Positions 36,620 through 37,901 of a stretch of DNA of 59,556 bases are shown here, in pieces; the first letter of the stretch is position 1; the number at the start of each line of letters is the position of its first letter. Below the pieces are notes generated by a model, which saw nothing but the letters and a program-made list of their open reading frames with translations, was not told the origin of the DNA and did not search any database. The position numbers and the translations under genes are program-made. This DNA is from Saccostrea cucullata (Eukaryota): NCBI RefSeq assembly GCF_032062105.1, contig NW_026934361.1, positions 1-59,556 on the forward strand, written 5' to 3'.

Positions 36620-37901
36620 TTTGCACACGACCCTAATTTTTTGCACACGGCCCTTTGAATCGCTGCCAAGTATTACCTGTGTAGTCAGCATAAAAAACGT
36701 AAGTCTATCGTATTTTTGCACACGACCCTAAACAAACCCATGCTATATATAAACCAGGGCTGGACATGAAGGATCACTCTGCGTGAGTACTTGGAACTGG
36801 ACACAGGTAAAAATGGAGCACGCAAAAAATATGACAGAGAAAACGGAGCATCGTTGGTTTATTGAGATATTCGGAGGTATTGACAAGAAGGGACCTTGGA
36901 TGAAAACCACAGAAGAAGCCATACAGGATTTCATGAATTTTAAAATTCATTCCACAGAATCGCCTAATCAAAGAGAAATGACCAAAATAGTATGGTGGGA
37001 AACAAGACAAAAAATTCATGCTGCAGATTGTCCTAAGAGAAGAAACCTAGTCTCCAGCTATATTCAGGGAATAATTGGTGGTCCTGAATCCAAGTACCCA
37101 ATATGGGGTGTTCCTGGTGATCCTGAATACAAGTGGTCAATCGAGGGTGTTCCTGGTATTCTGGATGTAAGTCACTGGTACAGAAATTCAGAAGACTGTC
37201 TTCAAGATTTGCTCAAGGACATGAAAAAGAGAAGGTTATTCCACCCAAGTTACGCCTACTACCTGATTGGTCGTATACACTTTAGTAATGTCTTAAATAT
37301 TTATTGTAAAATTTGGGGTATAACAGAGCGATTGATTACAGATCCCTGAAAAGATACAGAAGAAGAAAAAAAAGTAAATTGATGTATTTTTGATTCTGAA
37401 TAAAAATTGCCTTGTTCTAATCTGTCTTGTGTGTGTTCTTGTTTTCAGAAAATCCAGGTTGTTATTGTTTTCAGAAAATCCAGTTCAAACCGGTTAGGCT
37501 GTCTAGACTAGGCTTTAGACTGTGAATGAATGCGTGACGTCATAATCACATTCTTGAGTCGCTGCCAAAAAATCGTAGTAGCAGCGTTTGTGAATCGTAG
37601 TAGCCACGTATAGTAGAGTGTAAACACCGTATTTAGAGCTATGTACTGACCCACCTAGCCCCCAAAGGACTGTACTGAGTTGACCCCCTATCCCCCCCCC
37701 CCACCCTAAGACCTGTACTGAGTTGAACCCCCCTATCCTCCCAAACCCCTAATCTGCACTCCCTTGACCCCCCTATCCCCCAGGGGGCTGCACTCCGTTG
37801 ACCCCCCTATCCCCCCAACCAATCAGAATCCTCCATTTTTGACCTTATTTGCATAAAAAGTGCACTCAGTTGAACCGTCTATCTAGACGCCTTATACTAC
37901 T
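36620..37901 (-). repeat. Polinton right TIR (about 1.28 kb, uninterrupted)
   Basis: Inverted homologue of the left end; ends with ACTACT followed by the TSD. Confidence 0.93.
36813..37349 (+). CDS. TIR-encoded unknown protein, right copy (two W...W...QD repeats)
   Basis: TATATATAAA at 36744, TCACT at 36774, ATG at 36813; open for 178 codons and transcribed toward the terminus. Confidence 0.78.
   Translation: MEHAKNMTEKTEHRWFIEIFGGIDKKGPWMKTTEEAIQDFMNFKIHSTESPNQREMTKIVWWETRQKIHAADCPKRRNLVSSYIQGIIGGPESKYPIWGVPGDPEYKWSIEGVPGILDVSHWYRNSEDCLQDLLKDMKKRRLFHPSYAYYLIGRIHFSNVLNIYCKIWGITERLITDP

Follow-up and report, generated by a model that had tools for sequence, protein, structure and literature searches.

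Interchangeable gene slots at both ends of an oyster Polinton probably set the length of its terminal inverted repeats

The two ends of a Polinton family in the oyster Saccostrea cucullata are probably versions of one and the same outward-facing gene slot, and recombination across the flanks that the slots have in common likely swaps the gene between them or copies it. A long, gene-bearing terminal inverted repeat (TIR), i.e., one of 1.1–1.4 kb, is then likely to be what is seen when the same gene sits in both slots, with TIR length a by-product of recombination. In the proposed layout, promoter modules and a TATA box would lie on the inward side of each slot, followed by the open reading frame (ORF), and a common poly(A) tail and the terminus would lie on the outward side. 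We infer the mechanism of exchange from its end products. The TIR would here be the common part of two interchangeable gene units, rather than a fixed non-coding cis element. Such slots would account for the wide variation of TIR length and for the poor dating of insertions by TIR identity, and they would make the ends a site of accessory-gene turnover, as in larger linear DNA viruses, yet by homologous exchange. Genes within Polinton TIRs are already in print; what may be new is the pair of homologous slots whose interchangeable cargo sets TIR length. The published works given below by identifier are drawn on for the accessible parts of their texts.

The Polinton in the window

The window, i.e., the whole stretch of 59,556 nucleotides analysed here, holds a broken Polinton/Maverick copy (Table 1). 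Its termini are AGTAGT at 12779 and ACTACT at 37901, and a 6-bp target-site duplication (TSD) flanks it; TIRs with AGTAGT//ACTACT ends and a 6-bp TSD define Polintons/Mavericks in the accessible text of PMC8097293. Three core genes were recognized by Pfam, namely the polymerase pPolB (DNA_pol_B_2, E 8.7e-35 and 4.2e-12; the gene is broken in this copy), an integrase at 27978–29084 (rve, E 2.5e-11, with a chromo domain) and a packaging ATPase (Pox_A32, E 1.3e-5, 25.2 bits against a cut-off of 22.8). Two further ORFs, at 23881–25302 and 23489–23878, have no Pfam match at E 0.01, and from motifs, size and position they are the putative major capsid and adenain-type protease genes, respectively. 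To judge from its sequence, the window copy is dead; compared with sister ORFs, pPolB is interrupted by one stop and two frameshifts and the putative major capsid gene by one stop.

Table 1. Features of the Polinton and its two slots in the window
Feature	Position	Strand	Details
TSD, left copy	12773..12778	+	6 bp
Polinton/Maverick element, broken copy	12779..37901	.	25,123 bp, the 5,050-bp insert counted in
Left TIR, outer piece	12779..13380	-	ORF end, tail, terminal core; ~600 bp, 96.9% to 37296-37901
Inserted repeat	13381..18430	.	5,050 bp; CCCAGATAGC inverted ends, TT either side
Left slot ORF copy	18394..18915	-	173 aa, final 11 residues read from insert
Left TIR, inner piece	18431..18982	-	TATA, leader, ORF codons 1-162; 552 bp, 97.6% to 36746-37297
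Left promoter	18999..19134	-	three TGCACACGG; module order unlike right promoter
Capsid-end-specific upstream sequence	19144..19770	-	19144-19264 and 19670-19770 match coiled-coil-bearing ends, not polymerase ends
Internal paralogue of slot gene	27208..27675	-	155 aa, 27% identity over 135 aligned positions, E 8e-8 (pairwise)
pPolB, 5' part	35646..36512	-	transcription directed away from right slot gene; start 36512
Right promoter	36586..36778	+	TGACGTCA 36586; TGCACACGR 36622, 36642, 36717; TATATAAA 36746; Inr-like GATCACT 36772
Right TIR as matched to left end	36746..37901	+	1,156 bp: TATA, leader, ORF, poly(A) tail, terminal core
Right slot ORF, W family	36813..37349	+	178 aa
TSD, right copy	37902..37907	+	6 bp

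Several other features of the window are recorded here. Within the element, a BIR-RING (IAP) gene lies at 31989–32522 (−), a RING-like gene at 19815–20291 (+) is related to a RING slot cargo described below (33% over 57 aa, E 5e-7), and an ORF at 22478–23200 (−) has a weak Viral_Rep (HUH endonuclease) Pfam match of E 0.0028, below the family cut-off. Just past the TSDs, the host sequence contains 21-bp satellite arrays in opposite orientation (12019–12515 and 38493–39157). At 1858–4953, a DDE_Tnp_4 transposase gene faces a YqaJ-domain gene, an arrangement which is presumably that of ISL2EU/Harbinger-type elements.

The two ends compared

The ends of the element match each other continuously over 1,156 bp, and ~1.27 kb is reached only with a promoter-repeat patch of 77% identity (36636–36724 against 19059–19140). 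A sequence-only reading of the window had described ~1.3-kb TIRs, each with a complete transcription unit. The long gene-bearing repeat stands, but its length has to be corrected, to a value inside the range of 46–1,447 bp given for vertebrate Maverick TIRs (PMC8097293, accessible text). An outward ORF of the predicted ~170–180 codons was found at either end, each ~67 bp behind a TATA box (TATATAAA at 36746 and 18982), together with a putative initiator (GATCACT at 36772 and 18956, Inr-like by consensus), and the right ORF is divergent from pPolB, as had been said. At the right end the poly(A) signal is AATAAA (37399..37404, +), but the unit is not complete at the left end, where the 5,050-bp insert interrupts the ORF at codon 162, the poly(A) region is thereby 5 kb off and the signal reads TATAAA. 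Since the first 320 bp of the insert are matched at 97–100% in all 40 scored candidates (of 430 candidates), the insert is a later transposon.

Over codons 1–173, the two ORFs differ at seven sites, six of them nonsynonymous (TGA/CGA counted) and one synonymous, reproducing the earlier by-eye count of about seven mostly nonsynonymous sites. A stop at codon 173 (37329–37331) is kept in 27 of 27 other loci compared, so that the right ORF is a six-codon read-through and the TGA had rightly been called the probable true stop. Of the 26 substitutions that separate the whole ends, 15 are confined to one end; for the other 11, each of the two states also occurs at other loci, a sharing that recurrent mutation can mimic across diverged copies. 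Neutral drift since insertion, offered by the sequence-only reading for the whole pattern, thus explains only part of it: it accounts for the differences confined to one end, and the remaining ones suggest that the ends were already mosaic.

The differences are also clumped, with seven in the 67-bp leader, six in 485 bp of the ORF, seven in the ~100 bp past the insertion site and six in the final 500 bp. Such clumping would be expected if the symmetry had arisen after integration, by host gene conversion between the ends, and the presence of duplicate contigs (including C23619, C7724/C7469 and C19409/C13811) and a probable fold-back (C12734) in the assembly could make it an assembly product. 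However, the termini are exact, with a 6-bp TSD; a second contig has the left end, the insert and the host flank in common with the window copy; 26 differing sites and a 5-kb insert are not expected from assembly collapse; and other loci also have symmetric and palindromic forms, with TSDs of their own. We therefore regard a post-integration or assembly origin as extremely unlikely.

Slots and cargo in sister elements

A search of the genome with the right slot ORF, whose family we call W, gave 41 matches among the 40 scored of 121 candidates. Across the 30 loci fetched (duplicate contigs included), W stands at the polymerase end in 18 and at the non-polymerase end in 10, and two could not be placed. 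The duplicated gene is a real and recurrent feature of the family, neither a one-off nor an assembly artefact, and the long TIR belongs to some copies but not to others: W lies within both TIRs in C10885 and C11219, but outside a short TIR in C17155 and C19409. Owing to the fold-back and the duplicate contigs, there are more raw hits than true copies. The probable fold-back, C12734 (1502–5855 against 14884–19443), was set aside.

Four types of cargo were found in the slots, namely W; W2, a distant paralogue of 160 aa; a 190-aa coiled-coil protein, with weak coiled-coil Pfam rows only; and a 150-aa RING-like protein. All four point outward, starting ~1.0–1.27 kb and stopping ~0.5–0.76 kb from the terminus, and they have in common the promoter modules, the TATA box, the tail and often the leader.

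Both slots were aligned in 12 elements, which were picked because their search hits paired on one contig, so that the split of seven elements with the same cargo at both ends against five with different cargo is not a frequency. The 300-bp tail matches end to end in all 12 (77–100%, over 98–326 columns) and the promoter matches partially in all 12, whereas the ORF matches in seven (W/W in two, W2/W2 in three and RING/RING in two); in the five mismatched elements, a W, W2 or RING ORF stands opposite a coiled-coil ORF. Further inward, the sequence 400–700 bp upstream matches end to end in none of the 10 measurable elements. The inverted match is ~0.5–0.65 kb long in the five asymmetric elements, ending within ~80 bp of the cargo stops, and ~1.1–1.4 kb in the seven symmetric ones (C18600 aligned over 0.84 kb only), where it ends inward at the TATA box or up to ~250 bp upstream. 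In all five asymmetric elements, the coiled-coil cargo is at the capsid end only, and the polymerase end holds W, W2 or RING.

Outside this set of 12 are elements whose two ends are not both on the contig (C17680, C12655, C9737, C7551, C13811, C6685, C18637, C5828, C12734, C7724, C7469, C10985, C10824, C11356 and C3341), as well as C11219 (promoter deleted at one end), C17155 (the one element with an empty capsid-end slot), C21490 (left end not reached) and C19392 (lacking one end), together with six palindromic derivatives.

Three kinds of rearranged element were also seen. First, in palindromic derivatives (C10951 2421–21314, C10765, C23042 99590–118526, C17222, C18642 11183–37556, C12688 and C19392) a whole arm is duplicated as an inverted repeat of 2.5–6.4 kb or longer. 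In some the arm comes from the capsid side and carries a coiled-coil or RING gene, in others it comes from the polymerase side and carries pPolB and IAP. Exact termini and 6-bp TSDs show that three of these palindromes transposed as palindromes. Second, a recurrent subfamily (C3427, C17876, C18600, C7577 and C10791) keeps pPolB (and IAP), with the integrase and capsid-side genes unmatched and a junction that connects the start of the ATPase or IAP gene with the internal paralogue. Third, signs of tandem slot units, i.e., tail-like sequence just upstream of a promoter, two co-oriented coiled-coil genes, or RING and W-like genes adjacent to each other, were seen at L128 1160–1500, C17466 222–4035 and C21490 1322–3111.

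Direction of copying

At the left end of the window copy, upstream sequence of capsid type gives way to 97.6% identity to the right end, and the switch lies right at the TATA box. When 25 W copies were placed in one tree, the copies of non-polymerase ends were spread over several clades. Copies from the same element group strongly in C11219 (100/99) and weakly in the window (87/82), and those of C10885 fall in an eight-row clade without resolution. The simplest reading of the left upstream sequence, the position of the coiled-coil cargo at capsid ends and the several clades is that the gene of the polymerase end was copied over to the capsid end repeatedly. The ends of the RING/RING elements differ by 12–23%, which favours exchange between elements or old events over recent end-to-end copying.

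In the window, the capsid end would have received a copy of the polymerase-end gene, joined on at the TATA box, in place of its resident gene, probably the coiled-coil one. The probable route is that, in protein-primed replication, one end of the displaced strand pairs with the other, and this pairing would extend through the common promoter; exchange between sister elements would be a second route. TIR pairing of the displaced strand belongs to the standard Polinton model (10.64898/2026.07.28.741278, accessible text). After integration, the copy would have died, and the 5-kb repeat would have broken the left gene.

The reverse history would have the long gene-bearing TIR as ancestral and kept alike by TIR repair, with the asymmetric elements arising later, when the gene of one arm was replaced or lost. 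Symmetric elements are known for three cargo types, C17155 has its empty slot, and promoter modules and tail are common to the ends even where the cargoes are unlike, as an old duplication of the whole unit would leave them. Against this, the coiled-coil gene is only at capsid ends and W, W2 or RING at polymerase ends in the five asymmetric elements examined, and the left end of the window copy retains capsid-end upstream sequence. Exchange of cargo would still be needed for the four cargoes, and the ancestral-TIR account, which we consider improbable, differs from the slot reading mainly in direction.

The sequence-only reading had proposed that the TIR grew inward once and captured a gene, of which two copies were kept for a higher dose. 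The repeat does reach over the gene, and the ORF is part of the matched sequence at either end of this element and of six others; in two elements, the W2 genes of the two ends agree at 100% over 400 bp, and poxvirus ITR expansions are discussed as raising gene dosage (PMC10230479, accessible text). However, capture is not supported, as the searches gave no host homologue of the family, the relatives found are Polinton paralogues, internal ones among them, and in other elements the gene stands at the polymerase end, outside the TIR. Nor is dosage as a purpose: elements with the full gene set carry the gene or its slot-mates once, six of the eight symmetric polymerase-bearing elements seen (C11219 included) are without capsid-side genes, the W copies at non-polymerase ends do not form one clade, and the capsid-end copy, which likely replaced another gene, is no longer intact in C10885, C11219 or the window. 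Capture for dosage is thus very unlikely, and recombination between two resident slots remains the preferred reading.

Relation to known systems

That Polinton TIRs are non-coding, the premise of the sequence-only reading, has a published exception in Pieris/Euchloe polintons, whose ~2-kb TIRs hold hexon and adenain genes (bioRxiv 10.1101/2025.02.07.637071, accessible text). As there, protein genes lie inside the TIRs here, in two copies per insertion, and the window has the same gene once per TIR, with the left copy interrupted. We note two differences. First, the Pieris/Euchloe TIRs duplicate core virion genes, whereas the oyster element duplicates an accessory family that varies between elements. 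Second, the TIR edge in the oyster tracks the common flanks of the slot, whereas the accessible part of the Pieris/Euchloe account has no exchange between ends. In vertebrate Mavericks, accessory ORFs adjoin the TIRs rather than lie inside them, and the accessible text of PMC8097293 describes no common promoter cassette. Nematode Mavericks resemble the oyster elements in having a variable region by the TIR with alternative cargoes (wasp, krma), but the accessible text of bioRxiv 10.1101/2022.07.12.499685 places it in one region of 2–5 kb, from the left TIR to the integrase, with intron-bearing genes thought to be host-derived. The oyster slots, in contrast, are at both ends, ~0.5 kb long and intronless, and their families are Polinton-resident.

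The ends of poxvirus genomes are hairpins. Poxvirus ITR expansion is similar in that genes are copied end to end, with loss at the receiving end and a longer inverted repeat, but it proceeds, in the accessible text of PMC10230479, by nonhomologous recombination with varied junctions and in a cytoplasmic virus. The oyster element is integrating and protein-primed, and its junctions coincide with cargo stops or lie inside homologous repeats of the promoter. Copying may have come with loss here too: the left end keeps the capsid-end upstream sequence, and the resident gene, not seen directly, would have been lost. The EMALE virophages have TIRs of 0.2–2.3 kb that regenerate after truncation, which implies end-to-end copying; they are virophages of protists, and gene exchange within TIRs is not described in the accessible text of PMC8547959. 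Exchangeable end slots are likewise not described in the accessible texts of PMC11296320, PMC12220804, 10.1101/2024.01.15.575659, PMC8502044, PMC11131425, PMC10748475 and 10.1101/2022.07.28.501842. Neither exchangeable terminal slots nor arrays of metal response elements in Polintons were found in the accessible open-access literature; Repbase, subscription journals and supplements may differ.

The slot protein

The W protein is predicted to consist of two copies of a ~60-aa beta-beta-alpha-beta unit (pLDDT 71 for the whole model, 84 for a single unit). In addition to the internal paralogue in the window, a second internal paralogue was found in sister elements, and the core retains its aromatic and charged positions in each of the four paralogue groups. 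At E 0.01, Pfam assigned the slot protein to no family, and for 16 single units at E 5 it gave just four weak one-member rows. A protein search with the single ORF passed none of 10 candidates, one with a 22-row alignment gave four matches, all relatives of the internal paralogue, and a profile search of 1.84 billion representatives gave seven, i.e., five from the family and two of repeat-protein noise. The database relatives are all within this family, and two are labelled Saccostrea cucullata. ESM Atlas gave no usable match, IMG/VR no relative, a PDB sequence search nothing below E 0.13, and Foldseek no match at E 0.001 in PDB or BFVD. In VIA-align, the best matches of the whole model (Z 4.2 to Erh1, rmsd 4.0, 76 aligned) and of one unit (Z 4.5 to 8g9s_A, rmsd 3.1, 55 aligned) were under the noise level. 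A possible resemblance of the unit to AP2-type DNA-binding domains found no support in the sequence and fold searches. Capture of W from a host gene was rejected, since no host match was found in the searches.

The pairwise dN/dS of W has a median of 0.84 (over the 32 of 36 pairs in which 5 or more synonymous changes were counted), compared with 0.39 for pPolB and 0.60 for the paralogue, and its mean by likelihood (M0) is 1.00, not different from 1. The slot ORF could on this ground be a decaying passenger of no present function whose dN/dS of 1, against ~0.39 for pPolB and ~0.57 for the internal paralogue, reflects neutrality, in keeping with a transcript not seen in three oligo-dT runs and with 15 of 30 loci that lack a full ORF, the other 15 retaining one. 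However, the frame is kept open: ~10 stops were expected on the internal branches of the 12-copy W tree, and none was seen (P ~1e-4 or less). A two-class model, in which half of the sites have a dN/dS of ~0.22, is ~15 log units better. The conserved core positions and the folding of the predicted model also speak against a passenger, and we judge it highly unlikely. Selection on the ORF is thus absent from the mean but present in the frame; read from these alignments, W is a reading frame held open by selection. An extra class, with 18% of sites at a dN/dS of ~2.9, further improves the fit (p 0.002), in a site test that used home-made code, a fixed tree and 12 open copies only and whose result recombination can inflate. 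In our reading, W combines a fold under constraint with a surface that changes fast, as for a factor that meets host proteins, and this fits the slot-mates (RING and coiled-coil) and the IAP of the element. That the slot protein is a fast-evolving accessory factor acting on host proteins or nucleic acid seems to us about an even call.

Promoters and expression

In the window, all six TGCACACGR motifs lie in the two slot promoters, against 0.26 expected in shuffles, for a pattern that was picked post hoc. Across the genome, 62 of 63 cargo loci with sufficient flank have a TATA-like box and one to five TGCACAC[GA] upstream (5 of 68 loci lacked flank, near-duplicate contigs were kept in, and the host-flank rate is 0.01 per 330 nt). 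The core of the metal response element bound by MTF-1 is TGCRCNC (PMC4879176, accessible text), and several such cores stand upstream of the start here, as in MTF-1 target promoters. The likeness to the metal response elements of PMC4879176, as far as its accessible text goes, is that several cores lie upstream of a TATA box; the difference is that they are here in the accessory promoters of a mobile element, with a match in motif only. Through MTF-1, the TGCACACG arrays could let metal or oxidative stress induce the slot, which on motif evidence we hold to be a tentative and rather doubtful prospect, and a factor encoded by the element might use the TGCACACG motif instead. The metal-response-like motifs offer a cheap handle on what switches animal Polintons on. 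Unlikely, in our estimate, is the full scheme in which the slot would be a stress-inducible (MTF-1/CREB-type) cassette-exchange site for alternative anti-host genes (the two-unit W family, the RING protein and the coiled-coil protein), swapped by recombination at replication, with W diversifying in an arms race with the host. If true, it would mean rapid turnover of alleles in that race, with TIR length as a read-out of the cargoes loaded.

RNA-seq mapping did not show a slot transcript in three oligo-dT libraries (run without a positive control): depth over the ORF body was 0–0.12, the lowest bin along the element, with no pile-ups at start or end. Coverage along the element was thin and on both strands in these runs, which have no host control gene and come from unspecified tissue and treatment; the term transcription unit accordingly rests on motifs. 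The coiled-coil slot showed nothing clearer than the W slot. One contig, from a run only guessed to be RNA, covers 37138–37353 with 16 differences.

The TATA plus TGCACACG promoter is also found internally, at C10791 18003, C17876 54375, C18600 41402 and C7577 13818, where it precedes the second internal paralogue, and it may for this reason define a class of accessory-gene promoters. Each terminal core has three more TGCRCNC cores, of the form TGCACTC (37755–37867 and 12813–12925), and 12 of the 30 TGCRCNC cores in the window are within the ends and promoters of the element. An octamer, ATTTGCAT, lies ~50 bp from each terminus (37847–37854 and 12826–12833), with TGACGTCA and CCAAT-like sites inward of it (37535, 13141 and 37819), a combination reminiscent of the Oct-1/NFI/ATF sites of adenovirus ITRs.
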